Below, piece by piece: positions 31,967-45,999 of a stretch of 64,000 bases of DNA (position 1 is its first letter; each line of letters opens with the position of its first letter). Source of the stretch: Spirochaetia bacterium (GTDB lineage Bacteria > Spirochaetota > Spirochaetia > UBA9216); contig OY776510.1 of assembly GCA_963675665.1 (NCBI GenBank), positions 4,352,001 to 4,416,000 of the forward strand, read 5' to 3'. A program made the translations under genes and the position numbers. The notes beneath the pieces were generated by a model that saw only the letters and a list, made by a program, of their open reading frames with translations, was not told the DNA's origin and ran no database searches.

Positions 31967-33072
31967 TGCAGGAGCACTCCATTCTTAAACATTTCGGTAA
32001 AAGAATTTCGGTTTTAATTCTTGCAGCAGCAATAATTATAATTCAGCTGCTGACTTTTATCACTGATACATCCTATCTTCTGACACAGCTGACTATGTCG
32101 GCGTGGTATGTTCTTGCGGCTGTAGGACTGTGCATGGTAATGGGTTACGCGGGACAAATCTCTCTGGGACAGGCAGGTTTTTTCGCTATCGGCGGATATA
32201 CAACAGCCGTCCTTTCAACAATAGACTTTACCGGAAAAACATTGTCAGGCGCCGGGGCGCTTCTCAAGAGCCTGCATCTGCTGATTACAAAAGAAACACT
32301 TTATGGAGATACCGTAACCTACCTCAATCCCTGGATTGCGCTTGCCGCAACCGTGATAATTGCCGCTGCCGCTGCGCTCATACTCGGCATCCCGGTGCTT
32401 AAGCTGAAAGGACATTACCTGGCAATGGCCACAATGGGCTTCGGAATAATCATCCACCGTATAGTACTCGGTACCGGGGCATTCGGAGAGGCTGACGGCA
32501 TATCAAATGTTCCGCCTTTCCGGCTGCTTCCGTTTTTTGAAGTATGCGGCGACTTTTCAACACGGGTCGGAAACTACTATTTTGCCTGGGTGATTGTTAT
32601 TGCAGCCATGCTGCTTCTGATTAATCTGGTTAATTCACGCACGGGCCGGGCACTGCGTGCCCTTCACGGAAGCGAAGATGCAGCCGAAGCCATGGGTGTG
32701 GACACAACCCGCAGCAAGGTAATCGTATTCATGATCGGCGCCGTATTCGCTGCAGTTGCAGGTTTTTTTATGACCCATTATAACGGCGGTATCGGACCGT
32801 CCGAAGCAGGCGTTGTAAAATCGGTACGCTACCTGTCTATTGTCGCAGTGGGCGGAATGGCAAACATCTGGGGCACTCTTATTATGGGAATGCTGCTGAA
32901 CTTTCTGTCGCTCAGAGGCGTTTTCGGCCATTTTGACGATGCCGTTTTTGGAATTATTCTTGTTCTTATTATGATGTTCATGCCGGACGGGTTTATAAGG
33001 AAAGCCGTCTGGTACAGCATTAAGGAATTCGTTACCCGAAAGTTTCTTCGAAAAGGGAGATCCGTCCGATGA
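31966..33072 (+). CDS. livM: Liv-type ABC permease
   Basis: GYAGQISLGQAGFFAIGGY and LKLKGHYLAMAT motifs. Confidence 0.88.
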   Translation: MQEHSILKHFGKRISVLILAAAIIIIQLLTFITDTSYLLTQLTMSAWYVLAAVGLCMVMGYAGQISLGQAGFFAIGGYTTAVLSTIDFTGKTLSGAGALLKSLHLLITKETLYGDTVTYLNPWIALAATVIIAAAAALILGIPVLKLKGHYLAMATMGFGIIIHRIVLGTGAFGEADGISNVPPFRLLPFFEVCGDFSTRVGNYYFAWVIVIAAMLLLINLVNSRTGRALRALHGSEDAAEAMGVDTTRSKVIVFMIGAVFAAVAGFFMTHYNGGIGPSEAGVVKSVRYLSIVAVGGMANIWGTLIMGMLLNFLSLRGVFGHFDDAVFGIILVLIMMFMPDGFIRKAVWYSIKEFVTRKFLRKGRSVR

Positions 33073-33836
33073 AACCAGTTATGAGCATAAACGGACTCGA
33101 TAAACGTTTCGGGGGGCTGCATGCAGTTAACTCTGTATCTTTCGATGTCAAACCGGGAACAATCAAGTCGGTAATCGGTCCGAACGGGGCCGGAAAAACT
33201 ACCCTTTTTAACATGATAGCCGGGTTCTTTCCGCCCAGTTGCGGCAGTGTACATTTTAACGGCAAACTTATAACCGGTATGAGACCTTACATGATTGCGC
33301 GCCAGGGTCTGCTTCGTACTTTTCAGAACCTTAAAGTCTGCGGAAACCTTAGCGTACTCGACAATGTTCTGATTGGCTTTCATACAAAAGGAAAAGCCGG
33401 CTTTACAGCCGGCATGCTTTCAACCCGCAAAAGCAGGACTGAAGAAAAACAGGCCCTTGAAACTGTACTGCCCCTGCTGGAATGGCTCGGGATAGCCGAA
33501 AAAAGAGAAACACCGGTAAACAGTCTTTCTTTCGGTGAACAGCGTTCTGTTGAACTTGCACGTGCTCTTGCCTCAGATCCTGCGATGCTTCTTCTTGATG
33601 AACCTGCAGCCGGGCTGAATATGCATGAAACCGAACAGCTTTCACGCAATATCAGCGAGCTTCGAACTCAGGGGCGTACAATTCTGCTCGTAGAACACGA
33701 TATGAGTCTTGTCATGGATATCTCGGACGAAATAGTCGTTCTCAATTTCGGCGAAAAAATAGCCGAAGGTAAACCATCCGATATTCAGAATAACGAAGAA
33801 GTGATCAGGATATACCTCGGGGGCAATGATGCTTAA
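33069..33836 (+). CDS. livG: Liv-type ABC ATP-binding protein
   Basis: FGGLHAV, GPNGAGKTT, LLDEPAAG and C-terminal YLG. Confidence 0.9.
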   Translation: MKPVMSINGLDKRFGGLHAVNSVSFDVKPGTIKSVIGPNGAGKTTLFNMIAGFFPPSCGSVHFNGKLITGMRPYMIARQGLLRTFQNLKVCGNLSVLDNVLIGFHTKGKAGFTAGMLSTRKSRTEEKQALETVLPLLEWLGIAEKRETPVNSLSFGEQRSVELARALASDPAMLLLDEPAAGLNMHETEQLSRNISELRTQGRTILLVEHDMSLVMDISDEIVVLNFGEKIAEGKPSDIQNNEEVIRIYLGGNDA

Positions 33837-34563
33837 GATAAGAAATCTTGAATCGGGATATGACAAACTGAAAGTCCTTAAGGGCGTAAGCCTGCATGTA
33901 AACGCCGGCGAGATAGTTACCATTATCGGAGCAAACGGAGCAGGAAAATCAACCCTGTTGAACACAATTGCCTCGATAGTCGCCCCGATTTCCGGTGAGA
34001 TAATACTTAAAGACAAAAATGTTGAAAATAAACAAGCCGATTTTATGGTTAAAAACGGGTGCGTACTTGTTCCTGAAGGAAGGCAGCTATACCCTGCAAT
34101 GACTGTAAAAGAAAACCTTATCCTGGGCGCATACACAATCTGCTCAGGCCGGAATCGAAAGGTTGCGGAAGACCACCTGGAAGAAATCTATTCGATGTTT
34201 CCTGTTCTCGGCGATCGGAAAAATCAGCTTGCAGGAACACTTTCGGGAGGAGAACAGCAGATGGCCGCAATAGGACGCGCGCTTATGTCGGGCCCTGAAC
34301 TTTTAATGATGGACGAACCGTCAATGGGCCTTGCACCCATAATAGTGCGCAATATCTTTAAAACAGTGGATAAACTCCGGTCTCAGGGAAAGACTATTCT
34401 TATAGTGGAACAAAATGCAAGGGCAGTGCTGGAAATTGCAGACCGGGGATATGTTATGGAAACGGGAACGCTTGTAATTGAAGGAAAAGCTGAAGAGCTG
34501 CTTGATAACAACGACGTCAAGAGGGCCTATCTTGGGCGGGATTATAAAGAGTTTACGGATTAA
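33826..34563 (+). CDS. livF: Liv-type ABC ATP-binding protein
   Basis: GANGAGKST, VPEGR, LSGGEQQM and DEPSMGLAP motifs. Confidence 0.9.
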   Translation: MMLKIRNLESGYDKLKVLKGVSLHVNAGEIVTIIGANGAGKSTLLNTIASIVAPISGEIILKDKNVENKQADFMVKNGCVLVPEGRQLYPAMTVKENLILGAYTICSGRNRKVAEDHLEEIYSMFPVLGDRKNQLAGTLSGGEQQMAAIGRALMSGPELLMMDEPSMGLAPIIVRNIFKTVDKLRSQGKTILIVEQNARAVLEIADRGYVMETGTLVIEGKAEELLDNNDVKRAYLGRDYKEFTD

Positions 34564-34577
34564 ACCAGGAGGAAAAT

Positions 34578-35888
34578 GTGATTTATTCAAGAGAATATGA
34601 AACAATGCTCAGAGAAGATCTTGAACAGCTTCAATTTGAGCGTTTACAGATGACATTAAACCAGGTTTACCGGAATGTCTCTTTTTTTAAAAATTTATTT
34701 GATGAAAAACAAATCGAGACAACCGATCTTAAATCTCTAAAAGATCTTGCCAACCTGCCGCTGATGAGCAAAGATGATCTGCGGCAAAGTTATCCGTATG
34801 AAGCTTTTGCTGTTCCGCTTCGTGATATAGTCAGAATCCACTCCACTTCCGGGACATCCGGAACTCCGATCGTTGTGGGATACACCAAAAACGATTTGAA
34901 TATCTGGTCATCTCTGGTTGCCAGGGTTCTTACCTCTGTAGGAATAGACAGCCATTCGCTTGTACAGATTGCGTTTGATTATTCGCAATCCACGGGTGGC
35001 CTCGGGTTTCATTACGGTGCCGAGAAGCTGGGCGCTTCCGTAATTCCGGCCTCCGGAGAAGAAGTGCTCAAGCAGATCAGAATAATGAAGGATTACCGCT
35101 CATCAGCGCTTATATCGACGCCGGGCTACGCTCTTCATATAGCATCAACCCTTGAAGAACTGGGTATGGATCCCCAGGAGCTGAATCTATCTATCGGGTT
35201 GTTCGGAGCCGAGCCCTGGAGCGAAAAAGTAAGAGCAGAAATTGAGACAAGGCTCAAGATTAAGGCATATGATAATTACGGGCTCAGCGAGATTATCGGT
35301 CCGGGGGTTGCTTACGAATGTGAACACCGCTGCGGCATGCATGTCAATGAAGATCATTTCATCGTCGAGGTTATTGATCCCGAAACGCTTCAGGTTCTTC
35401 CCGAAGGTGAAGAAGGTGAGCTTGTTTTTACAACGATAACAAAGCAGGCTTTTCCGCTTATCCGGTACCGGACAGGCGATATTTCCAGGATTATTTCCGC
35501 ACAGTGCGAATGCGGCAGAACCTTCAGACGCATGGAACGTGTCTCCGGCAGAATTGACGACATGATTATCATCGACGGCAATAATATTTTTCCGTCAATG
35601 ATCGAATCTCTTCTTTTTGAAATTGAAGGCGTGGAGCCCCATTTTCAGATTGTTCTAACCCGCAATATGGGCCTGACAGCAATTGAACTTAAAGTGGAAG
35701 TCACCCCTGATTTCTTTTCTTTCGATGAAATAAAAAAAGCGGAAAATTTCAGAAAAAAAATTAATAATCAGCTGTCGACAAGGCTCGGAGTCCATGCGAA
35801 AATAACACTCGTTGAACCTAAAAGTATTGAACGTACCAGAGGCGGTAAAATAAACCGTGTCATTGATATGAGAGAGGGCGGGTTTTGA
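34578..35888 (+). CDS. paaK: Phenylacetate-CoA ligase family protein
   Basis: RIHSTSGTSGTP, GAEPWSE, YGLSEIIGPGV and IRYRTGD motifs. Confidence 0.88.
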   Translation: MIYSREYETMLREDLEQLQFERLQMTLNQVYRNVSFFKNLFDEKQIETTDLKSLKDLANLPLMSKDDLRQSYPYEAFAVPLRDIVRIHSTSGTSGTPIVVGYTKNDLNIWSSLVARVLTSVGIDSHSLVQIAFDYSQSTGGLGFHYGAEKLGASVIPASGEEVLKQIRIMKDYRSSALISTPGYALHIASTLEELGMDPQELNLSIGLFGAEPWSEKVRAEIETRLKIKAYDNYGLSEIIGPGVAYECEHRCGMHVNEDHFIVEVIDPETLQVLPEGEEGELVFTTITKQAFPLIRYRTGDISRIISAQCECGRTFRRMERVSGRIDDMIIIDGNNIFPSMIESLLFEIEGVEPHFQIVLTRNMGLTAIELKVEVTPDFFSFDEIKKAENFRKKINNQLSTRLGVHAKITLVEPKSIERTRGGKINRVIDMREGGF

Positions 35889-36502
35889 AATCGACATTCG
35901 ACAATCTTTCTGAAAATAAAAAACAGAGAGTTATTGACGCATGCATAAAGGAATTCGGCGAATTCGGTTACGCTGCAAGCTCGATGGACGGAATAATCAA
36001 AAGAGCGGGCATATCCAAGGGCGGCCTGTACGGTTATGTTTCATCAAAACGTGAATTGTTTCTTTACATTGTTGATTATGCGTATTCCGGGTTATATAAA
36101 TATCTTAAAGACCAGATAGATGCGGACAAGGAAGCTCTTCAGCCCGATTTGCTTGAAAGGTTGAAATATGTATCTGAAAATGCAATAGACTTTTATATAG
36201 ACCACACCGAATTTATTTATCTTATCGTACGAACCTCCAATATTCCCGATGAAAGTCTCGCAAAAGAGATCAAAAATATTTTTAATAAAAACTTCATCGG
36301 ATTATTCGGCGATACCGACGATACAAAACTCTGCTACCCAAAGCAGCAAGTTCTTGAACTGGCTATGTGGCTGCTCCAGAAAACACGTCTCGATTTCCTC
36401 AGTGAAATTAAACTGGAAAAGGATCCATCCGTTATCAAGCGGGATTATATGCTCAACTGGGATTTCTACCTGGGAATCATGCGATCCGGAATCTACACTT
36501 AA
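35885..36502 (+). CDS. TetR/AcrR family regulator
   Basis: HTH IIKRAGISKGGLYGYVSSKRELF. Confidence 0.9.
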   Translation: MKSTFDNLSENKKQRVIDACIKEFGEFGYAASSMDGIIKRAGISKGGLYGYVSSKRELFLYIVDYAYSGLYKYLKDQIDADKEALQPDLLERLKYVSENAIDFYIDHTEFIYLIVRTSNIPDESLAKEIKNIFNKNFIGLFGDTDDTKLCYPKQQVLELAMWLLQKTRLDFLSEIKLEKDPSVIKRDYMLNWDFYLGIMRSGIYT

Positions 36503-36517
36503 ACTGTTCCATCCTTA

Positions 36518-37798
36518 TCATTTGAATTTATCCGCCTCGGTAATAATCATCGGGGATTCCTTCAAACGCAGAACCAGGACCAGTGCCGCAACCGCCAGAA
36601 CAGCAAATACAGTCATAAAACCGTTCAGCCATGCATTATCATGAACACTCATCCCGGCCACAAACAGCAAACCCGATATCTGGCCGGCAAAAAGAAGAAT
36701 TCCCTGTGATGTAGATTCGGGGGCCGGAAAACTGACTTCAGCGGCATACTGAAAACCAATCGGGCCTGCGCTCATTACAAAAAATCCCAGGATAAATGAC
36801 GCGGCAAGCGCTATGCCGTAAACCTGAGAGGCATCGGACGATAACATATCGGCAAAAGACAAACCCAAAACCCCCGGAAGCATTCCGGCCATACACAGCA
36901 CCAGGAAAAACTTCCGCTTCCTGAATTTATCCGACAGAATCGGAAGCACCAGAGCGCCAAGTACACCGCCGCCGAGCATAAGGACCCCAATCAGGCCGTC
37001 CGAATCCTCAACCCCGAGAGACGCCGATATCGAATCGACCATGGAACTTACTGCATTGAAGATTCCGAGACCTATGAAAAACAGAATTATGGTCAGAACC
37101 ATGTCTTTCTGCTTAATAATATGCCTGAGTCCGTCAAAAAACATCTTATGCTGCAGTTCCTCGTTCGAAGGCGGCGTCGGCGGTTTTTCGCGGATAAGGA
37201 CCAGTGCCAGAACGGCGCCGGCTGCGCTGATTATACCGTAGATTAAAAGCATCCGATCAATTCCGGTTCCGTATCCCGGTTCGCCCGGCGAAGAAACAAC
37301 CAGCAGCGGAGTCACAGCCATTACAATAATAATTCCGATATATTGGGCCAGGGCAGACAGGCCGGCGGCAGTCCCGCGTTCGCGCAGCGGAAACCAGCGG
37401 ACGGTAACCGCCGTAACAGCATTAAGAATAAACGGCTGCGCTACTGCAAGACCAGCCTGGGCGGCCAAAACAATCCTGAAATCAGCGCCGCCTATACCTT
37501 TCATCAGGCTGAATACTGCAGTCAGCACCGATCCGATGCCAAGACCGGTTCGTATACCGTAGGTATCGATAATATATGACGCCGGAATACAGACTACAAG
37601 AAAAACAAGCATATAAAGCATCGAAAGAAAATCAATGTTGATTATCGAATCCGGGTTAAACTGCCCTTCATAAAACACCTCGGCAGCCCTGGCTACGGGA
37701 GCATGGGTCAGCCATTGAACTTCTATGAGCACCGTTACCAGCATAAAAGCGGCAAGAACTACCCAGCGGTAGGGATAAACTCTGTAACCTTCTTCCAT
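36518..37798 (-). CDS. MFS transporter (FLVCR/SLC49-like N-terminus)
   Basis: YRVYPYRWVVL start, WFPLRERGTA and about 12 TM helices. Confidence 0.9.
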   Translation of the reverse strand: MEEGYRVYPYRWVVLAAFMLVTVLIEVQWLTHAPVARAAEVFYEGQFNPDSIINIDFLSMLYMLVFLVVCIPASYIIDTYGIRTGLGIGSVLTAVFSLMKGIGGADFRIVLAAQAGLAVAQPFILNAVTAVTVRWFPLRERGTAAGLSALAQYIGIIIVMAVTPLLVVSSPGEPGYGTGIDRMLLIYGIISAAGAVLALVLIREKPPTPPSNEELQHKMFFDGLRHIIKQKDMVLTIILFFIGLGIFNAVSSMVDSISASLGVEDSDGLIGVLMLGGGVLGALVLPILSDKFRKRKFFLVLCMAGMLPGVLGLSFADMLSSDASQVYGIALAASFILGFFVMSAGPIGFQYAAEVSFPAPESTSQGILLFAGQISGLLFVAGMSVHDNAWLNGFMTVFAVLAVAALVLVLRLKESPMIITEADKFK

Positions 37799-37809
37799 CC
37801 TGTTCTCCT

Positions 37810-39438
37810 TCAGCCGTTAAGCTCAGTAAAGAATTTCCTGTTTGCGTTATAAAGATTTTTGAATACCCGGTAATTACGTTCATAAACAACGGAGTACTTT
37901 TCATCCGGATGATAAACCCGCTCTATCTCAATAAGGGATTGAATATCATCAAATCCGCCCGTATTGCCAAGGCCTACGGCTGCAACGGCAGCTGCGCCCA
38001 ACGCACCGGAGTTTTGAGGTTCTTTGGGAACTTCTATCGTTCTGCCGAGGATATCAGCCAGAATCTGCGCATTTGTTTCCGACTGTGCGCCTCCGCCGAC
38101 AAAACGTATGGTCTCATTGCACGCAAACCTTGATTCAATGCTTTCCAGCATCCACCGGAGATTGAAACCGAGACCCTCTACTACCGCGCGGATAAGTTTT
38201 CTCTTGCCGGTGTTAAGGCCGATATTAAAAAACATCCCGCGGGCGTACGGATCCTCAAACGGCGAACGGCTTCCGTGAAGCCATGGTGTAAACAGCAAAC
38301 CTCCGCAGCCCGGTTCTGTTTCTGATACCACCTCGGAAAGCATCTTGAAAAGAGATTCATGCACCGATTCCTGATCATCAGCAGTCCGGGTCTCTTTTAA
38401 ATACAAACCTATTTCATCAAGAGCAAGATGCCGTGCAACCCAATCCATACACTTCCCTGCTGTCTCCTGTTCACAAAAATAATGATATTTTTCGGGAACC
38501 GCGCAGGTGATGGAGGCGATCATGTGTTTCAAATCAAGTCTGCGGCTTTCGGTGACTGCTGAAACCCAGCCGGAGGTTCCCATATAGATATGTATGTCGC
38601 GGTTATTAACGGCGCCTGCACCTATTCCGATAAGCGAAGCGTCTCCCCCGCCGCCGAAAACGGGGATATTTGCGGGAAGACCAAGTTCTGAAGCGGCCCG
38701 GGGAAGCAGTTCTCCGGCGCAATCAGTCGAATCAATTATTTCGGGGAGATGGCAGTGGTCCATACCGTACAGCCTGCATAATTCCCTGCTCCAGCAGCCC
38801 CTGCCGGGCCTGTTGTCATACATAAAAGTAGCCCCGGCGCTGTCGCGGGTCATAACCGCCCTTCCGGTCAGCTGCATTATCAGGTATTCTTTCACATCAA
38901 GATATTTATAAACCTTTCTGAAAATCTCGGGTTCATTTTCCCTGACCCAGTGATATTTCCAGAGCGGGTCCTTAACGCTGGTAGGAGCTATCCCGGTGAT
39001 GTGAATGGATCTGATTAATTTGAATAACGGCAGCCCGGCAACCTTTAACCCGGGTAACGGTAAACGCTTAAAACGGCTGCCGGCATTATTCCTCTGGGCT
39101 CCGGCCCTTCCGTCCAGATAGCTCATCGCCGGCCTGAGCGCTTTTCCGGATTCATCAACCAGCACAAGCCCCTGCATCTGGGAGCAGAACGAGATTCCCG
39201 CAACATTTTCAGCATTTATATCGCCATTACAGAATATTTTGCGGGTGGTCGAGACCATTGCATCATACCACTGCTGCGGGTCCTGTTCGGCAGCACCGCC
39301 TTCAGAGATTTGCAGATCATATTCTTCCGAGGAGCTTGCTTCAAGTTTCAGCTTGTTCCCCAGACTGTAGACACACGTTTTTAACGATGTTGTTCCTATA
39401 TCATATGCAAGAAGCAGCTTCGTTTTTTTTGCCGTCAT
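37810..39438 (-). CDS. FGGY family carbohydrate kinase (xylulokinase-like)
   Basis: AYDIGTTSLK, GGGDA, MGTSGW, PWLHGSRSP and VGGGAQS motifs. Confidence 0.92.
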   Translation of the reverse strand: MTAKKTKLLLAYDIGTTSLKTCVYSLGNKLKLEASSSEEYDLQISEGGAAEQDPQQWYDAMVSTTRKIFCNGDINAENVAGISFCSQMQGLVLVDESGKALRPAMSYLDGRAGAQRNNAGSRFKRLPLPGLKVAGLPLFKLIRSIHITGIAPTSVKDPLWKYHWVRENEPEIFRKVYKYLDVKEYLIMQLTGRAVMTRDSAGATFMYDNRPGRGCWSRELCRLYGMDHCHLPEIIDSTDCAGELLPRAASELGLPANIPVFGGGGDASLIGIGAGAVNNRDIHIYMGTSGWVSAVTESRRLDLKHMIASITCAVPEKYHYFCEQETAGKCMDWVARHLALDEIGLYLKETRTADDQESVHESLFKMLSEVVSETEPGCGGLLFTPWLHGSRSPFEDPYARGMFFNIGLNTGKRKLIRAVVEGLGFNLRWMLESIESRFACNETIRFVGGGAQSETNAQILADILGRTIEVPKEPQNSGALGAAAVAAVGLGNTGGFDDIQSLIEIERVYHPDEKYSVVYERNYRVFKNLYNANRKFFTELNG

Positions 39439-40103
39439 CTGCTCAGCTTCTCATCAATTCGGATCCTGGAATATTTGCGCAGATACACCTGATGCATCAA
39501 CGCAGCCTCAAATCTATTAATTTTTTTTGCCCCGCCGAGGAATTCCGCCTCTATAAATGCCTTACAGCCTTTTTCAAGGACCTCACAGCATACAAAAACT
39601 TCTTCAATATCCCGGCCCACACAGATAGCGCCATGATTTGCCATAAGGGCAGCGTTTCTGCCCCGTAAAGCCTTTAACGTTGTTTTTACAATCTTTTTTG
39701 TCCCCGGCAGGGCATAATCAGCACATCTGACGGTAGGTCCGATAATTTGCGCAAGATCATCCAGGACGGGAGGGACCTCCCTGCGGGCGGCTGCGACTAC
39801 CGAAGCATTGGTACTGTGTGTATGCACAACAGCATTTATTTCCCTGCGCGACTGATAAACAGCAGCGTGCAGATTTTTTTCGCTTGACGGTTTTTTCCCG
39901 TCCCAGGTGCCGTCAATAATATTTACGATAGTAATGTCGTCGCAAGTCAGGCTGATATATTCACCTCCGGACGGAGTTATAGCCATATAGTTATCATCAA
40001 TTCTTACGCTGATATTACCCCAGGTACCGGCAGTCAGTCCTGCATCGACAAGCCTCAGTCCCGCGTCCCTGACCTTTTTTCTGGCTTCATCCCTGGTCAT
40101 CAC
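39435..40103 (-). CDS. Class II aldolase/epimerase (FucA/AraD family)
   Basis: GTWGNISVR, ITPSG, PSSE, VVHTHS and ANHG motifs. Confidence 0.92.
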   Translation of the reverse strand: MMTRDEARKKVRDAGLRLVDAGLTAGTWGNISVRIDDNYMAITPSGGEYISLTCDDITIVNIIDGTWDGKKPSSEKNLHAAVYQSRREINAVVHTHSTNASVVAAARREVPPVLDDLAQIIGPTVRCADYALPGTKKIVKTTLKALRGRNAALMANHGAICVGRDIEEVFVCCEVLEKGCKAFIEAEFLGGAKKINRFEAALMHQVYLRKYSRIRIDEKLSR

Positions 40104-40120
40104 CTTCTCCCTGATCTTTT

Positions 40121-41584
40121 CTATTGTACCTTAACTTTTGAAAATACCCTGTCGAAGCCTGCAAGCGCATCATCGATTATTTCATCAGTATCAGCAGCAC
40201 TTGTATAAAGCCTGCTACCGGCAAGAGTAATTATACCTTCAGCAGTATATGCCGCGCCGAAACTTTCCATTGCCTCTTTACGGGCATGCGCCTGGCGGAT
40301 TGTATCCTTAATCTTCCAGAACCTCTTGATATCGATATCAAGCAGCATTGCAGCTCCTGTTTCCAGATGACAGATTGCCCCCTGATTAAAAGCTACATAA
40401 GGCAGCCGGTATTTGCTGATGATATTCTTAAGCCCTGCCGTCAACCGGTCGGCGGCCTTTCCCGCTTTCACGCATGCATCAGTTTTTTCCATTTCACACA
40501 AAGTAAAATATCCTGCCGCCGCCGACAGCGGGTTGGCAGCCATTGTACCGCCGATAAGTGCTTTTTTGACTTTTGATCCCGCTTCAATTCCGGCGGCAAG
40601 ATATTTCATATATTCCCGCCTTCCACCAAGCCCGCCTGCAGACGGATACCCGCCTGCCACAACCTTTCCAAAAACCGTCAGATCAGGTTTGACATCAAAA
40701 TATCCCTGGGCACCGGCAAGACCTATTCTGAAGGCAGTTACTACCTCGTCGAAAATCAACAGCGCACCGTACTTGTCGCACAGCCGGCGGACTTCACTGT
40801 TAAACCCCGGAGATAAAGGCCGTGTGCCGCTTTCGGGACCAACGGGTTCTATAATTACAGCAGCCGTACCGCCGCGCAGCCGGTTCCGTTTCAGGATTCG
40901 TTCAAGGCTGACGGTATCATCAGGATAAAACTCACGGGTATATCTGAACATTTGCCGCGGAACGCCGTGAGCTTCCAGATGCATGGTCCCCGGCAACCGG
41001 ATACCGTAGGCAAGCTGATCGCTCCACCCGTGGTATGCGCCTCCCATTTTGACAATATTCTTCTTTTTTGTTGCAAGCCGGGCTACCCGTATTGCAGCCA
41101 TACATGATTCGGTACCGCTGCCGAGCATTCTGAAAAAATCAACAGAAGGTATCAGCTTTGTAATCTTTTCAGCCAGTTTGAATTCATATTCATGGAAAAG
41201 CCCGGTACATGGCCCGGTTTCATTCAGCAGCTTGATGACCTGCGTTCTGACCTCAGGAGGATTACTTCCAAGAACTGTCGGACCGCCCGCCTGCAGGAAA
41301 TCAATATACCTGTTTCCGTCCACATCCCAAAGATACGCTCCTTCGGCTTTTTCAACAGCAAGCGGAAACGGGTAATTGAAAGCGAGGTTGTGCTGAACTC
41401 CGCCGGGAATTATCTGTCTGGCTTTATCTGTCATAGCCTTCGAGCGAGAACATTTCTGTTCAAAATATTCCAGGACTTTTTCCATTTTATCTTCGGGTAT
41501 TGCAAGCAGGGTTCCCGACACAAGCTCTTTCAGCTGCTTTGTAACCTCAGCAGCATCAGGGTAACTTGAAATTGAATAGCTCAT
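40121..41584 (-). CDS. Class III PLP aminotransferase, HemL/GSA-aminomutase-like
   Basis: SGTES, YHGW, FDEVVTAFR, PLP-lysine FGKVVAGGYP and GTMAANP motifs. Confidence 0.88.
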   Translation of the reverse strand: MSYSISSYPDAAEVTKQLKELVSGTLLAIPEDKMEKVLEYFEQKCSRSKAMTDKARQIIPGGVQHNLAFNYPFPLAVEKAEGAYLWDVDGNRYIDFLQAGGPTVLGSNPPEVRTQVIKLLNETGPCTGLFHEYEFKLAEKITKLIPSVDFFRMLGSGTESCMAAIRVARLATKKKNIVKMGGAYHGWSDQLAYGIRLPGTMHLEAHGVPRQMFRYTREFYPDDTVSLERILKRNRLRGGTAAVIIEPVGPESGTRPLSPGFNSEVRRLCDKYGALLIFDEVVTAFRIGLAGAQGYFDVKPDLTVFGKVVAGGYPSAGGLGGRREYMKYLAAGIEAGSKVKKALIGGTMAANPLSAAAGYFTLCEMEKTDACVKAGKAADRLTAGLKNIISKYRLPYVAFNQGAICHLETGAAMLLDIDIKRFWKIKDTIRQAHARKEAMESFGAAYTAEGIITLAGSRLYTSAADTDEIIDDALAGFDRVFSKVKVQ

Positions 41585-41607
41585 GGGTTCCTCATATCTA
41601 AAAAAAT

Positions 41608-41633
41608 AAAAAGTGAGTACATACTCACTTTTT
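41608..41633. promoter_or_regulatory. TetR-type operator
   Basis: AAAAAGTGAGTA-CA-TACTCACTTTTT has perfect 12-bp arms and sits immediately downstream of the -10. Confidence 0.8.
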
Positions 41634-41634
41634 C

Positions 41635-41662
41635 AGTATACCACAGATAACAGATATGTCAA
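41635..41662 (-). promoter_or_regulatory. Sigma70 promoter of the aminotransferase operon
   Basis: Reverse strand TTGACA-N16-TATACT with extended TGn. Confidence 0.75.
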
Positions 41663-41689
41663 TTTAAAACCTCAGAACACCATAAATTA

Positions 41690-42334
41690 TCATGCCTGAA
41701 GAGCCCGGCGAATAAAAGCCATTGTAGTCCGCAGAACCCGCTCATCATCATCAAGGATATCCGGCGAGACGTAAACCTTCATTCTTTCCCGGTAAAACTC
41801 TGATGCGTATGAAAACTGCAACGACATAAAAAGATTGTCGATACAAAATGCAGCCATGTGATCATCAACATCAGCAGCGATTTCTCCATTCTCACGCGCC
41901 GTTCTGATTAGTTTTGAATAATACTCGGCTGATAGAGTTTCCATCTCATAAGAAAGTTTGGCTGCAAGTTCCCGGTTACCCTGTGTTGTTACCTCGTTAT
42001 ACAGATGAATCGTGTCCGGGTTATTACGTGAATGCTGCTGTATAACCTTTATTATCTGCTCAACTTTGTCAAAAAAACCGCCTTCAATTCTGTCTATATT
42101 CTCAAGCGATGCTTTCAGCGTTTTCACTGGCAGAGAACATATCATTAAAAACAGATTTTCCTTTGTTCCGAAATATTTATATAATGCGCCGACACTCACA
42201 CCGCATTTTTCAGCAATAATATTTATATTAGCCGCCCTGTATCCGAGCGACGCAAACTCTCCTGATGCTATGTTCAGTATTCTTTCCTGCTTTTCCCGTG
42301 AAAGCCGTTCAAACAGCGGTTTACAATATTTCAT
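41690..42334 (-). CDS. TetR/AcrR family regulator
   Basis: HTH IAEKCGVSVGALYKYFGTKENLF. Confidence 0.92.
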   Translation of the reverse strand: MKYCKPLFERLSREKQERILNIASGEFASLGYRAANINIIAEKCGVSVGALYKYFGTKENLFLMICSLPVKTLKASLENIDRIEGGFFDKVEQIIKVIQQHSRNNPDTIHLYNEVTTQGNRELAAKLSYEMETLSAEYYSKLIRTARENGEIAADVDDHMAAFCIDNLFMSLQFSYASEFYRERMKVYVSPDILDDDERVLRTTMAFIRRALQA

Positions 42335-42446
42335 ATGGGAAATAATAACATAAACAAATAAAAACTGTCACCAATATAATAAATTGATTGAAAAATCCAA
42401 CAATTGTGTTACATTGTAATCAACAATCCAAAACAAAGGTGTAAAA

Positions 42447-44522
42447 ATGCTTTCTCCCGTAATCAAAATAATTGAAGAAAAATGCAACAATTGTCATATG
42501 TGTATCTCAGTCTGTCCAGTAAAATTCTGCATTGACGGTTCAGGAGATAAAGTACGTGTAAACCATGATCTCTGTATCGGCTGTGCCAGCTGCATTGACG
42601 TATGCTCGCAGAATGCCCGTGAAAAAATTGATGATACATATGAAGCGTTTACTGCAATTAGAAAACGAGAGAAAGTTGTTGCTGTTGCTGCACCGGCATT
42701 TATCAGCAGCTTCGATGAAATGCACCGTAATGTGATAGGCTGGTTGAAAGAAAAAGGTGTTGATGCAGTATTTGATGTCAGCTTCGGAGCCGAACTTACA
42801 GTTAAAAGTTATCTTGAATTTATCAAAAAAAATAACCCGAGAATGGTTATCGCCCAACCCTGCCCTACAATCGTCAGTTACATTGAAATATATAAGCCCG
42901 AACTTCTTCCAATGCTTGCTCCGGCCGACAGTCCGATGCTTCATACTGTCAAAATGATAAAAACCTTTTATCCGGAATATAGAAATCACAAAGTAATAGT
43001 TATCTCACCATGTATTTCCAAGCGCAGGGAATTTGATGCCACAGGATACGCTGATTTTAATGTAACAATTGCCGAACTTACAAAAGTTCTTAAGAAAGAG
43101 AACGTCAACCTCGCATCGATCCGACCCCGGGATTTTGATAATCCTTCCCCGGAAAGGGCCGCTCTTTTTTCTTCACCAGGGGGACTGATGAAAACAGTTC
43201 TAAGAGAGAAACCGGAACTTGAAGACAGGATCAGGAAAATTGAAGGCCCTTCGGAAATTTATGATTACCTGGAAAATTTACCGAAATCACTCAAAAAAGG
43301 AACTAACCCGCTTATTGTCGATTGTCTTAACTGTTCAAAAGGCTGCAACGGCGGCCCGGGTACTTTAAACAGGGACACACCGATTGATGATCTTGAACAT
43401 ATTATAAGATCCAGAACTGACGAGTTGAAAAAAAAGTATAAATCAGGGCTGACAGGAAAAACCCTGACAGGTAAAATTGACGCTCTTCTTAAAAAGTACT
43501 GGAAGGAGGGTCTTTATAACCGAAGCTACAGTAACAAATCCGGCAATCTGAAAATCTCTATTCCTGATCAAAAACAACTCGGAATAATCTATAATGATCT
43601 GTTAAAAGAAAAAGAAGAAGATTTCCTGAACTGTGCCGCATGCGGTTACAATTCATGTGAAAAAATGGCTATTGCCATTTTTAATAATCTGAATAAAGCT
43701 GAAAATTGTCACCATTACAAAAACAGAATAATTCAAATTGATAAAGAGAAAATAAATTCGATAAACATTCAGCTTAAAAACAAAATTAACCACTGTGAAA
43801 ACCTTATTTCCGACATCTCAAATTCATTGACAATGGTAAACTCAAATATGGATGATCAGAGCAGTTCTCTCGGAACGTCCTCCACATCGGTTGAACAAAT
43901 GCTTAATTCTTTCAATTCCATCTCCGAAAACTTCTCTTCACAAAGTATAAGACTTGAAGAACTTATAACTAAAGCGCAAAACGGAGAACGGGAAATGAAA
44001 ATCAACTCTGAAGCAATCAGGAAAATTACTGATGATATCGGAAGTATTGGTAAAATGATTGTAATGATAGACGATATATCCCAGAGAACCAATCTTCTTT
44101 CAATGAATGCCGCAATTGAGGCCGCCCATGCAGGCAACACCGGCCGCGGATTTGCTGTGGTTGCATCAGAAATTAAAAAGCTGGCCCATAATACAGCTGA
44201 AAAAGCAAAAGAGGCTGAAACTTCTCTTAAAAAAATAATTAAAGAGACAAACACAACCGGCAGCAGTTATGAAAATACTTCTGAACTGATAATCGATATC
44301 ATCTCAAATATTCTTGAACTTACAAATGCAATGAGCAACCTGCTGGAGGATGTCAATCAGCTGACCATAGGCAGCTCGGAGATCATGAATTCGATTACAA
44401 CCCTTAAAACTGATAACCAGAAGGTTGTTGACTCCACATCTAAAATCGGAGGACACATCAATCAGCTTCACGGGAACATGTCGGAGCTGGTTGCCATTGC
44501 TGCCGGGCATGCGGATGACTGA
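42447..44522 (+). CDS. Soluble chemoreceptor: 2x[4Fe-4S], [FeFe]-hydrogenase-like domain, FeS domain and MCP signalling domain
   Basis: [12 protein letters not shown] and [11 protein letters not shown]; [14 protein letters not shown] and [12 protein letters not shown]; CAACGYNSC; [16 protein letters not shown]; no TM helices. Confidence 0.88.
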
Positions 44523-44530
44523 GAATTTGT

Positions 44531-45466
44531 TTAATAACCGGGGATTATATTTTTAGAACTGCTTTTTTCTCTTTGAAGCGCCAGTTTTAAATTCCCTTTT
44601 GCATTATTCATTATCTCTTTTGCTTCCTCCGCATCTACTTTTAATTTCCACATAATCAAAGCAAGGGCGGCATTATTGTCAGTTTTCTCAAGATATTCGG
44701 ATGCTTCCCGTTCCGTAATGCCGGTAGCGCTGATTAATGCTTTCTTTACCCGTTCAACCAATTTCGCATTGGAAATTTCCACGCAAATCATCAGGTTTTT
44801 ATAAACACGACCCAACTTGATCATTACCCCCATTGAAATCATATTTATAACCATTTTCTGTGCTGTTCCGGCTTTATAAACTGTTGCGCCGGCTAAAACC
44901 TCAGGCCCAACGATAACACATATGGTTTTATCGACAATCATGCTTAAAACTGATTCTTTATTGTTAACCAAAGCAATAGTCAAACAACCTGTTTTTTTAG
45001 CGTATTTAACACCGGACACAACATATGGAGTACTTCCGGATGATGATATACCGACAACAGCATCACGCGACGTCAGATTTAACTTTTTCAATTCCTTAAT
45101 AATCTCTTCGGTATCATCTTCAACTCCGGTTATTACACGATAAACGGCTTCAGGTCCGCCGGCCAGAACTCCCTGAACCATATCGTATGGAACGTTAAAA
45201 TACGGAGCTACCTCTGAAGCATCTACAACACCCAGGCGTCCGCTTGTTCCGCCACCGATATAAATCAACCTTCCGCCTTCATCAAACTTGTCAGTTATAC
45301 TGTCTATGGCAACAGCAATATTCTCAAGTTCATTCCCGATTGCTGCCGGTATTTTATAATCTTCCTTGTTTATCATCCTGACAATATCAATTGTTTTTGA
45401 ACTATCAATATCTTCAGTTTCAGGATTAATCGACTCGCTTAAATACTGTTCTATTTCAAAACTCAT
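44531..45466 (-). CDS. murQ: MurQ-family (SIS) sugar-phosphate etherase, divergent
   Basis: GGRLIYIGGGTSGRLGVVDASE, GVEDD, SGSTPYV, GPEVLAG, KAGTAQKMV and GRVYKNLM motifs. The symbol denotes the family only. Confidence 0.8.
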   Translation of the reverse strand: MSFEIEQYLSESINPETEDIDSSKTIDIVRMINKEDYKIPAAIGNELENIAVAIDSITDKFDEGGRLIYIGGGTSGRLGVVDASEVAPYFNVPYDMVQGVLAGGPEAVYRVITGVEDDTEEIIKELKKLNLTSRDAVVGISSSGSTPYVVSGVKYAKKTGCLTIALVNNKESVLSMIVDKTICVIVGPEVLAGATVYKAGTAQKMVINMISMGVMIKLGRVYKNLMICVEISNAKLVERVKKALISATGITEREASEYLEKTDNNAALALIMWKLKVDAEEAKEIMNNAKGNLKLALQREKSSSKNIIPGY

Positions 45467-45999
45467 ATTAATTCCTGCAAAGCTGATAACGGGAGGGCTC
45501 TATCCTTCAGCTCTTTAATAATCAACCCTGTTACCCATGAGGCAGCTGTTCCTACAACATCAGTACACTTGCTTTCATGTGCTCCATTGTTATTAAACTG
45601 CTCTTTTTCTTCGGGATTTAAAAGATTGTATGTTCTGCCGAATATTCTCTTATGTATATCTTTACAAATTACAGTATTGTATTTTTCAATAAATTTTTCA
45701 TGAAGCGATACAGCCATTCTGAATGCACACCTTTTTTCAAATTCATCATCATCAAAATAGTCCCTTCTCCTGCCGAAGAGCATGCTCATCAATATAATAC
45801 CACCTGAATAACCGCCGCATATACCGTCACATAAAAGACCGCAGCCTGCACCTAATCCGCAAGCAGATTTGAACACCAGATCATTTCTGATATTCAAGGT
45901 GTCCTGAACTGCAGCTACAGTGCACTGTGCACATCCTCTGAATTCTTTTTCATATTTGTACCCCAGAGTATATGCCTGCTCAATCAACTTATTCATCAT
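45463..45999 (-). CDS. C_GCAxxG_C_C family putative redox protein
   Basis: GCAQC, GLGAG, ICGGYSG, VICKDI and KC motifs. Confidence 0.85.
   Translation of the reverse strand: MMNKLIEQAYTLGYKYEKEFRGCAQCTVAAVQDTLNIRNDLVFKSACGLGAGCGLLCDGICGGYSGGIILMSMLFGRRRDYFDDDEFEKRCAFRMAVSLHEKFIEKYNTVICKDIHKRIFGRTYNLLNPEEKEQFNNNGAHESKCTDVVGTAASWVTGLIIKELKDRALPLSALQELI

Follow-up and report, generated by a model that had tools for sequence, protein, structure and literature searches.

Described systems with such enzymes are the fucose and rhamnose pathways, in which an FGGY kinase and a class II aldolase act together with an isomerase, and the arabinose pathway, in which the kinase AraB is of the FGGY type and AraD shares the fold of the aldolase considered here. 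The locus studied here was proposed in a first-pass annotation to follow the fucose/rhamnose logic with a PLP enzyme in place of the isomerase, which is still the most economical chemistry; the annotation missed that the arabinose (AraB/AraD) logic fits the set of folds equally well. A literature search found no account of such a gene set and no published description of this pathway, in agreement with the earlier view that it is undescribed.

The window, a 64-kb stretch of Spirochaetia DNA, carries on its minus strand a TetR gene, a sigma-70-like promoter, a perfect 12+2+12 palindrome and a four-gene operon, as defined by ORF coordinates and Pfam (Table 1). The operon genes encode, in order, a HemL-like class-III PLP enzyme, a class II aldolase, an FGGY kinase and an FLVCR-like MFS transporter. 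Gaps of 17 nt and 11 nt separate the PLP enzyme from the aldolase and the kinase from the MFS, respectively, and the aldolase stop and kinase start overlap by 4 nt. All five ORFs lie where they were first placed, each with an unambiguous Pfam family, and ORFs and Pfam support the notion of an orphan unit of PLP enzyme, aldolase and kinase with a TetR/operator pair. No tetrapyrrole genes were found by Pfam and NCBIfam among the 13 ORFs scanned around the operon (31966–45999), where their reported absence holds. The gene set is recurrent in many unrelated bacteria.

Table 1. Features of the operon and its control region in the window.
Feature	Position	Strand	Evidence
TetR-family repressor gene, 214 aa	41690..42334	-	Pfam TetR_N 1.9e-11
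HemL-like class-III PLP enzyme, read as transaminase, 487 aa	40121..41584	-	Pfam Aminotran_3 7.8e-53
Class II (Zn) aldolase-fold enzyme, family-specific LDDLAQIIG loop, 222 aa	39435..40103	-	Pfam Aldolase_II 3.4e-47
FGGY-family kinase, 542 aa	37810..39438	-	Pfam FGGY_N 1.2e-42, FGGY_C 3e-30
FLVCR/SLC49-like MFS transporter, 426 aa	36518..37798	-	Pfam MFS_1 1.6e-31
Operon promoter, TTGACA-16-TATACT, extended -10 TG	41635..41662	-	11/12 consensus matches
Promoter-like site 5' of TetR gene, GTGACA-18-TATTAT	42342..42371	-	10/12 consensus, pattern match only
Operator, perfect 12+2+12 palindrome, begins 2 nt 3' of -10 box	41608..41633	.	sequence

A consensus scan of positions 36300–42500 gave 13 promoter-like sites, a number that is not enriched over shuffled sequence (8.8 ± 3.1), and ranked the operon promoter first. 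The perfect operator described earlier is found at exactly 41608–41633 and reads AAAAAGTGAGTA-TG-TACTCACTTTTT. Its 18-nt core has one match in the window at ≤3 mismatches, and at least one match was also seen in 11 of 100 shuffles; hence its weight comes from conservation in relatives and not from the window alone. The core GTGAGT...ACTCAC recurs 19–61 nt 5' of the transaminase start in Spirochaetales, Leptospira and Clostridia loci, with arms of 14–17 bp in Leptospira. TetR, which reaches no NCBIfam equivalog at its cut-off, would in the absence of ligand occupy the palindrome overlapping the transcription start. By score, the palindrome hairpin with its T-run is also terminator-like.

The locus is best explained as a catabolic operon under TetR repression, whose substrate would be an amino-alcohol bearing a 2-amino-1,3,4-triol head group. 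What was observed directly is which genes are present, their promoter and operator, the signatures of each family, how often the genes occur together, how some are fused, and that sphingosine-1-phosphate lyase loci are linked to them; from these we infer every catalytic step, the order of the steps and the substrate. The MFS would import the amino-alcohol, the FGGY kinase would phosphorylate the C1 hydroxyl beside the amine, and the HemL-like enzyme would transaminate the product, with a 2-oxo acid as acceptor of the C2 amine, to give a 2-keto-3,4-dihydroxy-1-phosphate, which is formally a ketose 1-phosphate. Cleavage between C3 and C4 by the Zn aldolase would then form dihydroxyacetone phosphate and an aldehyde. 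The most likely substrate appears to be a phytosphingosine-type sphingoid base, giving a long-chain aldehyde; a short-chain analogue could also serve. It counts against this reading that sphingosine and sphinganine have no hydroxyl at C4, which the retro-aldol step requires. The complete route with a phytosphingosine-type substrate is proposed tentatively, at somewhat less than an even chance. More generally, the repressor-controlled four-gene set probably feeds an amino-alcohol, perhaps a sphingolipid backbone, into central metabolism by a route for which no description was found.

HemL is closest to the PLP enzyme both among solved structures (230 bits) and among NCBIfam models, where GntE and PigE also match, yet the enzyme scores below every HemL cut-off (291 against 398 and 265 against 527). 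The best 120 of 7999 database matches are 66–100% identical to it, and the Lys used in catalysis (K265 in HemL) is invariant. As noted at first pass, the HemL-like core has an altered motif, with IPGGVQHNLAF present where E. coli HemL reads IPGGVNSPVRAF; an invariant QHNLA replaces the HemL carboxylate motif NSPVR. In addition, all 10 family members aligned keep an Arg aligned with E. coli GabT R398, whereas HemL has no equivalent. The sub-cut-off scores, the missing carboxylate motif and the GabT-type Arg rule out HemL itself and favour a transaminase over an aminomutase.

The best NCBIfam model for the kinase, XylB, scores 300 bits where the cut-off is 380, and the kinase falls in its own clade in the tree (17 rows, 100% support). 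The transaminase/aldolase pair occurs with kinases of three FGGY clades, which are not resolved as one group, and kinase-less Acutalibacteraceae loci have a 50–51% identical full-length kinase elsewhere in the genome (5/5). Two independent kinase-transaminase fusions were found, P0125 with the transaminase followed by a kinase of the 510-aa clade, and P0126 with a kinase of the window's clade followed by the transaminase. The kinase-first order proposed here is the order in which these fusions join consecutive steps, which the earlier annotation overlooked.

The best PDB match of the aldolase is 6btd (1.9e-33, 119 bits), followed by E. coli FucA and AraD at 99 and 64 bits, and FucA-type NCBIfam models reach 150.7 bits versus 128.4 for 4-epimerase/AraD-type models. 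The Zn His triad, Glu and phosphate motifs align with those of E. coli FucA, which suggests that the substrate must be a 1-phospho-2-keto-3-hydroxy compound. In support of a phytosphingosine-type substrate, C3 and C4 of the D-ribo compound are configured as in L-fuculose and 5-deoxy-D-ribulose, on which the nearest solved aldolases act. FucA Tyr113 is replaced, however, and the GTWGN motif and YLRK tail resemble E. coli AraD, although AraD has Asp where the retained Glu stands. The elements expected to face the aldehyde, the LDDxAQ loop and the MHxxYLxKYSK tail, have a polar or charged rather than hydrophobic character, which argues against a lipid substrate.

Only FLVCR1 and FLVCR2 were found as PDB relatives of the MFS at E ≤ 0.01 (5/5 matches, best 6.1e-33), as the FLVCR-like assignment had implied. 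In FLVCR1, residues W125, Q214, F348, Y349 and Q471 bind the amine and hydroxyl of ethanolamine/choline (PMC11168923). On our reading of the alignment, these correspond to W29, Q121, F247, N248 and Q373 of the bacterial MFS, which are invariant in 10 orthologues; thus, four of the five are shared. This match counts in favour of a predicted amino-alcohol importer. The likeness is to carriers of small soluble amino-alcohols, not of lipids, and this too speaks against a lipid substrate.

Among 80 related loci, the aldolase is present in 68 (directly 3' of the transaminase in 62), a kinase in 39, TetR relatives in 34 (tblastn) and the MFS in 15. Thirty-one loci combine transaminase, aldolase and kinase, but only 7 have all four non-regulatory genes, which weighs against the pathway as a whole. 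The co-conservation expected of the four genes is thus partly borne out. No association with amino-sugar genes was found in the 80 loci, and the label of an amino-sugar pathway is not supported. In one locus (L021) an aldehyde dehydrogenase is the last operon gene and in another (L023) the cassette is flanked by an aldehyde dehydrogenase and an Fe-alcohol dehydrogenase, which point to a free aldehyde as the product. Saprophytic Leptospira with the transaminase, kinase, MFS and TetR have no close cassette aldolase in 5/5 genomes, only 28–30% identical relatives; hence the aldolase is dispensable there.

In a survey of 63 sphingosine-1-phosphate lyase neighbourhoods, six loci, all from Bacteroidota (L031, L198, L199, L205, L208 and L212), have the transaminase and aldolase between an FGGY kinase and the lyase. 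The transaminase orthologues are 61–62% and the aldolases 46–48% identical to those of the window, a Zn-less paralogue lies with them between kinase and lyase, and the kinase belongs to another FGGY clade than the window's. The lyase matches the solved Symbiobacterium enzyme with 624 bits (E 1.6e-186). An FGGY kinase lies directly 5' of the lyase in 50 of the 63 loci; of the 13 without one, 8 are truncated on that side. This link was overlooked in the earlier annotation; its restriction to six Bacteroidota loci counts against the pathway. The window's genome gave no match to the L031 lyase query, a further point against the pathway. It gave none to neutral ceramidase either, but that search matched in no control genome and so carries no weight.

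The main rival, unlikely though not negligible, is a B12-independent ethanolamine route. Ethanolamine imported by the MFS would be converted by the FGGY kinase to phosphoethanolamine and by PLP transamination to glycolaldehyde phosphate, which the AraD/FucA-like Zn enzyme would join to dihydroxyacetone (phosphate) to give a pentulose phosphate. Where the pair adjoins the lyase, in six Bacteroidota loci, it would consume the phosphoethanolamine that this enzyme frees. Such a route explains both the occurrence of one pair with kinases of three clades and its placement between kinase and lyase in one operon, and is consistent with the binding residues shared with FLVCR1, which transports ethanolamine and choline. 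AraD handles glycolaldehyde phosphate in its mechanism, and the polar or basic aldehyde-side elements of the aldolase resemble AraD, as do the GTWGN motif and YLRK tail. A split transketolase adjoins the cassette in about 22–24 of the 80 loci and in L061, and ethanolamine is far commoner than any small 2-aminopolyol. However, the aldol reaction would have to run in the synthetic direction with a second substrate, a donor supplied by no operon gene. Because a carbanion beside a phosphate ester is prone to phosphate elimination, clean transamination of phosphoethanolamine would be unusual, and the literature search found no phosphoethanolamine transaminase. Known ethanolamine kinases do not belong to the FGGY family. 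EutB accompanies the cassette in 6/26 cassette genomes, including 4/4 Leptospira genomes tested, where a second ethanolamine route is less needed.

Arabinose-type logic, in which the transaminase would turn an aminopolyol into a ketose, the XylB-like kinase would phosphorylate its far end and an AraD-like 4-epimerase would give xylulose 5-phosphate with no C–C cleavage, is rather improbable. It agrees with the XylB match, the AraD-like motifs and the fused aldolases of L047 and L033, for which the L-ribulose-5-phosphate 4-epimerase subfamily is the best NCBIfam model. The preference of the window's aldolase for FucA-type models and structures, its Glu in place of the AraD Asp, and the dehydrogenases of L021 and L023 argue otherwise, and we know of no natural source of a 2-amino-pentitol.

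Similarly improbable, and placed just after it, is a kinase plus phospho-lyase system modelled on ethanolamine kinase with ETNPPL and on aminopropanol kinase with its phospho-lyase. Here the PLP enzyme would eliminate phosphate and ammonia from an O-phospho-amino-alcohol to give an aldehyde or ketone, with the aldolase in a side role. The fusions, the aldolase-less Leptospira sets, the dehydrogenases of L021 and L023 and an APH-type kinase adjoining the FGGY kinase in 4 loci would all fit, and the conserved Arg could bind phosphate rather than a 2-oxo acid. The phosphate-binding Zn aldolase, the most conserved partner, would nevertheless be left with no phosphorylated substrate, and known phospho-lyases are in the AGXT2-like, not the HemL-like, branch.

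A biosynthetic module, in which the aldolase would join dihydroxyacetone phosphate to an aldehyde and the PLP enzyme would aminate the ketose phosphate, yielding an aminopolyol phosphate that would go into a surface polymer or an exported product, is very improbable. HemL-like enzymes often aminate aldehydes in biosynthesis, as the GntE and PigE matches recall, and the split transketolase is accompanied by a second HemL-like transaminase beside the pair in about 22–24 Acutalibacteraceae/Oscillospiraceae loci, with a cytidylyltransferase, a flippase and glycosyltransferases also adjoining it in L047. This neighbourhood is limited to one lineage, however, and the polysaccharide genes lie on the opposite side of the pair and on the opposite strand, while in the window the pair comes with a kinase and an importer-like MFS, under a substrate-type repressor/operator.

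Of the two PLP reactions first proposed, transamination is retained, and a HemL-style aminomutase turning a 2-amino-aldose into a 1-amino-ketose with no 2-oxo acid is hardly credible despite the HemL-related structures and models, given the scores under every HemL cut-off, the GabT-type Arg in 10/10 sequences, the lack of amino-sugar genes across the 80 loci and the inability of a 1-amino-ketose to bear the C1 phosphate that the intact phosphate and Zn site of the aldolase would imply.

The cassette occupies the minus strand as a compact operon with a TetR-family regulator gene adjacent to it. The spacers within the operon are 17 nt and 11 nt long, and there is a 4-nt overlap between the stop of the aldolase gene and the start of the kinase gene. 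TetR and aminotransferase genes are 105 nt apart, and this gap contains TTGACA-16-TATACT, which matches 11 of 12 consensus positions and was the top promoter-like site in a consensus scan of positions 36300–42500. Two bases past its -10 box begins a perfect palindrome, AAAAAGTGAGTA-TG-TACTCACTTTTT, whose core occurs once in the window; at least one match was also obtained in 11 of 100 shuffled sequences. With the T-run that follows, ATTTTTTT, the palindrome is also terminator-like (11-pair stem including 3 G-C pairs), and the hairpin could have the additional role of halting read-through from the TetR gene. The genes, promoter, perfect operator and adjacent TetR described in the first-pass annotation were right on every point that ORF, Pfam and promoter scans could check.

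Coordinates of the cassette genes, of the sites in the TetR-aminotransferase gap and of the flanking genes in the window
Feature	Position	Strand	Assignment
TetR regulator gene	41690–42334	minus	TetR_N, N-terminal HTH (Pfam)
Class-III aminotransferase gene	40121–41584	minus	clear Pfam assignment
Class II aldolase gene	39435–40103	minus	clear Pfam assignment
FGGY kinase gene	37810–39438	minus	FGGY_N 146.6 bits and FGGY_C 105.9 bits (Pfam)
MFS transporter gene	36518–37798	minus	clear Pfam assignment
Promoter-like site	41662–41635		TTGACA-16-TATACT
Palindrome (candidate operator)	41608–41633		perfect
Terminator-like hairpin and T-run	41608–41643		
Upstream flanking gene	42447–44522	plus	691-aa protein
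Downstream flanking unit	31966–36502	plus	convergent on the MFS gene

Among 80 loci encoding relatives of the window's transaminase, many have a palindrome with the core GTGAGT...ACTCAC 19–61 nt ahead of the transaminase gene, including L002, L007, 13 Leptospira loci, L019, L023, L025, L028, L039 and L061. The 13 Leptospira palindromes have arms of 14–17 bp with TTGACA embedded, and a variant form, GTGAA-N6-TTCAC, is present in several loci from Clostridia. In the Leptospira loci, the TetR gene points away from the cassette, hence the palindrome would be an operator and not just a terminator of the TetR gene. The window thus has both a TetR-family gene and a promoter-overlapping palindrome, of which a related core precedes the transaminase gene in Spirochaetales, Leptospira and Clostridia loci, and the palindrome is a candidate operator.

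Both flanks are unrelated to the cassette. The 691-aa protein encoded upstream combines ferredoxin-like 4Fe-4S motifs, an [FeFe]-hydrogenase large-subunit domain and a methyl-accepting chemotaxis signalling domain, and looks like a hydrogenase-like sensor feeding chemotaxis. The downstream unit encodes a Liv-type ABC permease, two ATPases, a PaaK-like phenylacetate-CoA ligase (497 bits against a cut-off of 646) and a second TetR. GC content is 0.355–0.363 in the first 8 kb of the window, 0.44–0.49 at 14–42 kb and 0.36–0.44 beyond 42 kb (genome mean 0.433). The operon itself has 48.2% GC compared with 43.3% for the genome (sd 3.7% in 5-kb windows), a difference too mild to mark it as a genomic island.

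A database search with the transaminase gave 7999 matches. The best 120 of these, found in Spirochaetales MAGs, Leptospira, Sphaerochaeta, Clostridia, Bacteroidota and other groups, are 66–100% identical along their whole length, and are named just 'aminotransferase class III' or 'glutamate-1-semialdehyde aminomutase'. In a collection of species-representative genomes, 179 stretches had a transaminase relative, and the 80 loci were retained from them. Searches by tblastn, in which some misses are contig ends, found an aldolase relative in 68 of the 80 loci (directly downstream of the transaminase in 62), an FGGY kinase in 39, a TetR relative in 34 and an MFS gene in 15. The kinase is at least 45% identical to that of the window in 30 of the 39 kinase loci and about 30% identical in the other nine. 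Transaminase, aldolase and kinase genes occur together in 31/80 loci, the four non-regulatory genes in seven and the complete five-gene set in three (L001, L002 and L005). Co-conservation of the four genes, which the first-pass annotation took as a test of its proposal, is therefore partly supported. Clustering of all 963 ORFs agreed with these counts and revealed no further partner common across lineages.

Missing genes were sought elsewhere in the respective genomes. In five of five kinase-less Acutalibacteraceae loci, a full-length, 50–51% identical kinase is encoded elsewhere; within 1.5 kb of these unlinked kinases, neither a TetR gene nor an operator-like palindrome was found. Saprophytic Leptospira with the transaminase, kinase, MFS and TetR genes and no aldolase at the locus have just 28–30% identical aldolase-fold genes elsewhere (5/5), which indicates that the aldolase is not needed in every case.

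The closest solved relatives of the PLP enzyme are HemL structures (4e77, 230 bits), and the catalytic PLP-binding Lys (K265 of E. coli HemL) is kept in an invariant alignment column. The enzyme lies under every curated HemL cut-off (TIGR00713, 265.4 against 527.3 bits; PRK00062, 291.3 against 398) and has, relative to E. coli HemL, a 45-residue N-terminal extension and an insertion close to the C-terminus. The same alignment confirmed the non-HemL motif noticed at first reading: GGVNSPVRAF of HemL is replaced by GGVQHNLAFNYPFP, and GGVQHNLAF is invariant in the family members aligned. In HemL, the Ser and Arg of this motif hold the substrate carboxylate. When E. coli GabT was included, its R398 was matched by an Arg in all ten cassette enzymes aligned, whereas E. 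coli HemL lacks this Arg. In class-III transaminases, R398 grips the α-carboxylate of the 2-oxo or amino acid, and HemL has FEAGF at this position with Glu406 close by, which excludes such acids; PMC9309667 numbers the classes differently and gave no decision on these Glu and Arg residues. As the Arg might also hold a phosphate, it supports a transaminase but does not prove it. Judged from these alignments and scores, the PLP enzyme looks like a real transaminase and not HemL. Of the two activities suggested earlier in place of the isomerase, the transaminase is thus favoured, and the 2,1-aminomutase becomes one of the weaker readings, since the R398-type Arg of the cassette enzymes is not a feature of HemL. 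A search of the window's genome found no canonical HemL above the cut-off (best 371.8 bits at contig positions C1:1780833–1782107, against 527 bits), and this 5.15-Mb spirochaete may therefore be without one.

The aldolase keeps all three Zn-binding His residues, as its VVHTHS and ANHGA motifs line up with VVHNHA and QHHGL in E. coli FucA, where these residues are H92, H94 and H155. Glu73 and the phosphate motifs are also kept (GTWGNIS, ITPSG and KPSSE for GNxS, PSG and PSSE of FucA). Together, these residues suggest that the aldolase should bind a 1-phospho-2-keto-3-hydroxy compound as the Zn enediolate. FucA Tyr113, which reaches the active site of the neighbouring subunit, is replaced by an LDDLAQIIG loop, and the scores against curated models are below the cut-offs (PRK06833, 150.7 against 264; TIGR01086, 106.6 against 400).

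Aldolase-family ORFs were found in 61/80 loci, and a loop of the LDDLAQIIG type was detected in 38 of them by a motif pattern that missed variants ending in AG (e.g. the fused L033 protein of Sphaerochaeta). Six loci have the loop in the Zn-bearing chain, which is also where the window's aldolase has it. In ten it is encoded by an additional, Zn-less gene (Leptospira, L031, L036, L039 and L059), and 22, mostly from Clostridia, encode a fused 330–420-aa protein with the loop in its C-terminal half. The simplest reading of this distribution is that one active site would combine a Zn/phosphate module with a DD-loop module given in trans. The DD loop is polar, and so is the conserved MHxxYLxKYSK tail. 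Like the GTWGN motif, this tail resembles AraD, and the aldolase could on this account be an epimerase; FucA-type models and structures outscore AraD, making this a weaker reading.

The kinase scores 300.1 bits against XylB and does not reach the TIGR01312 cut-off of 380.25. In a quick tree, the window-type kinases form a clade of 17 rows (support 100) apart from E. coli XylB, and the window-type, 510-aa and lyase-linked kinases fall into three distinct clades that the tree does not order among themselves; rows L111 and L228 have aberrant branches and are probably wrongly called ORFs. The window's genome contains at least 15 further FGGY kinase genes. Two long proteins join kinase and transaminase, P0125 (998 aa) as a transaminase followed by a kinase of the 510-aa clade, and P0126 (962 aa) as a kinase of the window clade followed by a transaminase. 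Two independent fusions, one in each order and each with a kinase from a different clade, argue that the kinase and the transaminase act on consecutive intermediates.

The sole PDB relatives of the MFS protein are the ethanolamine/choline carriers FLVCR1 and FLVCR2. In the FLVCR1 structure (PMC11168923), the amine is bound by W125 and Y349 and the hydroxyl by Q214 and Q471, with F348 as part of the site lining. These residues align with W29, N248, Q121, Q373 and F247 of the window's protein; thus four of the five are kept, Y349 is replaced by Asn, and all five positions are invariant in 10 orthologues from four lineages. The binding residues point to an amino-alcohol as the probable cargo, and rather to a small soluble one.

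A single series of reactions, namely import, C1 phosphorylation, transamination and aldol cleavage, fits with the intact phosphate/Zn site of the aldolase, with the fusions of kinase and transaminase and with a carrier of the amino-alcohol type. A 2-amino-1,3,4-triol would be imported by the carrier and phosphorylated by the kinase at the C1 hydroxyl; the transaminase would then convert the C2 amine to a ketone, and the aldolase would split the C3–C4 bond to give DHAP and an aldehyde. We propose this catabolic route tentatively, as a real possibility that falls somewhat short of being probable. The head group of phytosphingosine is exactly such a 2-amino-1,3,4-triol, and its C3/C4 configuration is that of L-fuculose and 5-deoxy-D-ribulose. 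A long-chain version, in which bacteria of many phyla would degrade phytosphingosine-type sphingoid bases like deoxy-sugars to DHAP and a fatty aldehyde, is more doubtful. It would comprise a sugar-kinase-fold enzyme, a HemL-derived transaminase, a FucA-derived aldolase (often a Zn subunit with a Zn-less partner) and a lipid-sensing TetR with its operator, and would be a second route beside the pair of kinase and sphingosine-1-phosphate (S1P) lyase.

A connection to S1P lyase is seen in L031, where the cassette genes (kinase, transaminase, aldolase and its Zn-less paralogue) are followed by a gene for a 505-aa protein that matches two S1P lyases, the solved one of Symbiobacterium (624 bits, E 1.6e-186) and the human one (421 bits). 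In a survey of 63 lyase loci (L198–L259 and L031) from Bacteroidota, Chloroflexota, Myxococcota, Bdellovibrionota, Thermodesulfobacteriota and Spirochaetota, an FGGY kinase gene is directly upstream of the lyase gene in 50; of the remaining 13 loci, eight are cut off upstream and five are real misses. No other gene is widely shared among them. As S1P lyase requires a sphingoid base 1-phosphate, the adjoining kinase would most simply be a sphingoid-base kinase. In six of the 63 loci, all from Bacteroidota (L031, L198, L199, L205, L208 and L212), genes for a transaminase 61–62% identical and an aldolase 46–48% identical to those of the window, and for the Zn-less paralogue, lie between kinase and lyase genes. 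Since the lyase-linked and window-type kinases belong to separate clades, the link reaches the window via the transaminase and aldolase and not via the kinase. The window's kinase is not claimed as a sphingoid-base kinase, the three cassette-linked clades not being one resolved group. With the L031 lyase as query, no S1P lyase was found in the window's genome. The PF04734 ceramidase model also had no match there; it had none in 14 control genomes either, and that search is uninformative.

The main rival starts from ethanolamine. Phosphoethanolamine would be converted to glycolaldehyde phosphate, which would then undergo aldol addition. This scheme explains the FLVCR likeness and the polar aldehyde side of the aldolase better than does cleavage of a 2-amino-1,3,4-triol, and also the position of the transaminase and aldolase genes between kinase and lyase, because the lyase releases phosphoethanolamine. 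It needs unusual chemistry and a second substrate, and we regard it as unlikely. EutB was found in 6 of 26 cassette genomes and gave no usable anti-correlation with the cassette, and a literature search outside whose coverage most subscription journals lay found no published phosphoethanolamine transaminase. Phospho-lyase and biosynthetic readings are weaker.

Cleavage of a 2-amino-1,3,4-triol to DHAP would be closest to the catabolism of L-fucose and L-rhamnose (FucI-FucK-FucA and RhaA-RhaB-RhaD) and to 5-deoxyribose salvage (DrdK-DrdI-DrdA). Like the cassette, the fucose and rhamnose systems combine an FGGY kinase (the ketose kinases FucK and RhaB) with a class II Zn aldolase, which in those systems forms DHAP and an aldehyde from a ketose 1-phosphate, and the best solved relative of the window's aldolase is 6btd (119 bits), which we take to be the 5-deoxyribulose-1-phosphate aldolase DrdA. 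In contrast to all three systems, the cassette has no isomerase but a class-III PLP enzyme in its place, a TetR regulator and an FLVCR-like carrier, and its aldolase differs from FucA in the LDD loop at Tyr113 and in scoring below all FucA cut-offs. L-Arabinose catabolism (AraA-AraB-AraD) also relies on a kinase of the FGGY family and an enzyme of the class II aldolase fold, the latter sharing its GTWGN and YLRK motifs with the window's aldolase; however, the window's aldolase is nearer to the FucA type, with Glu for the Asp of AraD, and the isomerase is again absent from the cassette. With HemL, the PLP enzyme shares the fold and catalytic Lys, but it differs in QHNLA for NSPVR, the extra GabT R398-type Arg, both terminal additions and the lack of tetrapyrrole genes nearby.

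Eukaryotic long-chain-base degradation (LCB kinase followed by S1P lyase) and the bacterial FGGY kinase/S1P-lyase pair resemble the proposed route in C1 phosphorylation of a 2-amino-1,3-diol followed by a PLP-dependent cut of the chain. They cut at C2–C3 to give phosphoethanolamine, whereas the cassette would cut at C3–C4 after transamination to give DHAP; moreover, the window has no lyase and its kinase is from another FGGY clade. The animal route of FLVCR1, ethanolamine kinase and ethanolamine-phosphate phospho-lyase likewise has an FLVCR-type carrier, a kinase for the amine-adjacent hydroxyl and a class-III PLP enzyme acting on a phospho-amino-alcohol. The cassette differs from it in having a kinase of the FGGY fold instead of the choline/ethanolamine kinase fold, a HemL-like instead of an AGXT2-like PLP enzyme, and in addition a phosphate-binding aldolase. 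A precedent for the proposed transamination is class-III removal of the C2 amine from a sphingoid-like amino-polyol by FumI (PDB 6hbs), the aminotransferase that deaminates the aminopentol from hydrolysed fumonisin. FumI is distant from the PLP enzyme (89.6 bits), acts on an unphosphorylated 1-deoxy compound and is partnered by neither a kinase nor an aldolase.

Neither the folds of the enzymes nor the logic of a kinase followed by an aldolase is new; the novelty would lie in the PLP enzyme that replaces an isomerase, in the split aldolase and in the class of substrate. Literature searches with the same coverage found no published description of the cassette and none of an FGGY kinase paired with S1P lyase. 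If the proposal is right, it would reveal an undescribed use of amino-alcohols in gut Clostridia, Sphaerochaeta, free-living spirochaetes, saprophytic and intermediate Leptospira, Bacteroidota and Chloroflexota. Three large orphan groups would gain functions, namely the HemL paralogue, now annotated as 'glutamate-1-semialdehyde aminomutase', the split FucA-like aldolase and the FGGY kinases, now annotated as xylulokinase, and such annotations would be corrected. Bacterial disposal of sphingolipid backbones, or ethanolamine use without B12, could thus become testable, and the conserved TetR/operator pair would be a ready-made biosensor for the cassette's ligand.

Further neighbourhoods bear on the predicted intermediates. 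An aldehyde dehydrogenase gene is the last of the operon in L021, and aldehyde dehydrogenase and Fe-alcohol dehydrogenase genes flank the cassette in L023, which fits with release of a free aldehyde. Of 80 loci from Chloroflexota and Caldisericota (L099–L178), 72 have an FGGY kinase gene of the 510-aa type directly before one for an MtnW-like RuBisCO-like protein, as an orphan pair. Ten of these loci also encode the cassette transaminase, and two of the ten, L128 and L178, the aldolase as well. An enediolate formed from a phosphorylated 2-keto-3-hydroxy compound is stabilised by RuBisCO-like proteins as well as by class II aldolases, and their occurrence with cassette genes fits the proposed keto-phosphate intermediate. 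No RuBisCO-like protein was found in the window's genome.

In about 22–24 loci of Acutalibacteraceae/Oscillospiraceae, genes for a second HemL-like transaminase and a split transketolase adjoin the transaminase/aldolase pair. The divergent operon in L045–L080 (e.g. L047:2695–7685, minus strand) encodes a 261-aa protein, the second, HemL/GntE-like transaminase, the split transketolase and a 277-aa protein, and a split transketolase is also beside the cassette in L061. The 261-aa protein was rejected as evidence for a lipid substrate, its SCP2 match being weak (E 5e-4, 20.8 bits against a cut-off of 21.3) and a PDB relative lacking. In saprophytic Leptospira, a gene for an APH-family phosphotransferase (283 aa) adjoins the FGGY kinase gene in L006, L012, L015 and L017. 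L015 and L017 also have a glycerol-3-phosphate oxidase/dehydrogenase-like gene beside this pair, and in L012 a HAD_2 phosphatase gene lies between the MFS and TetR genes.
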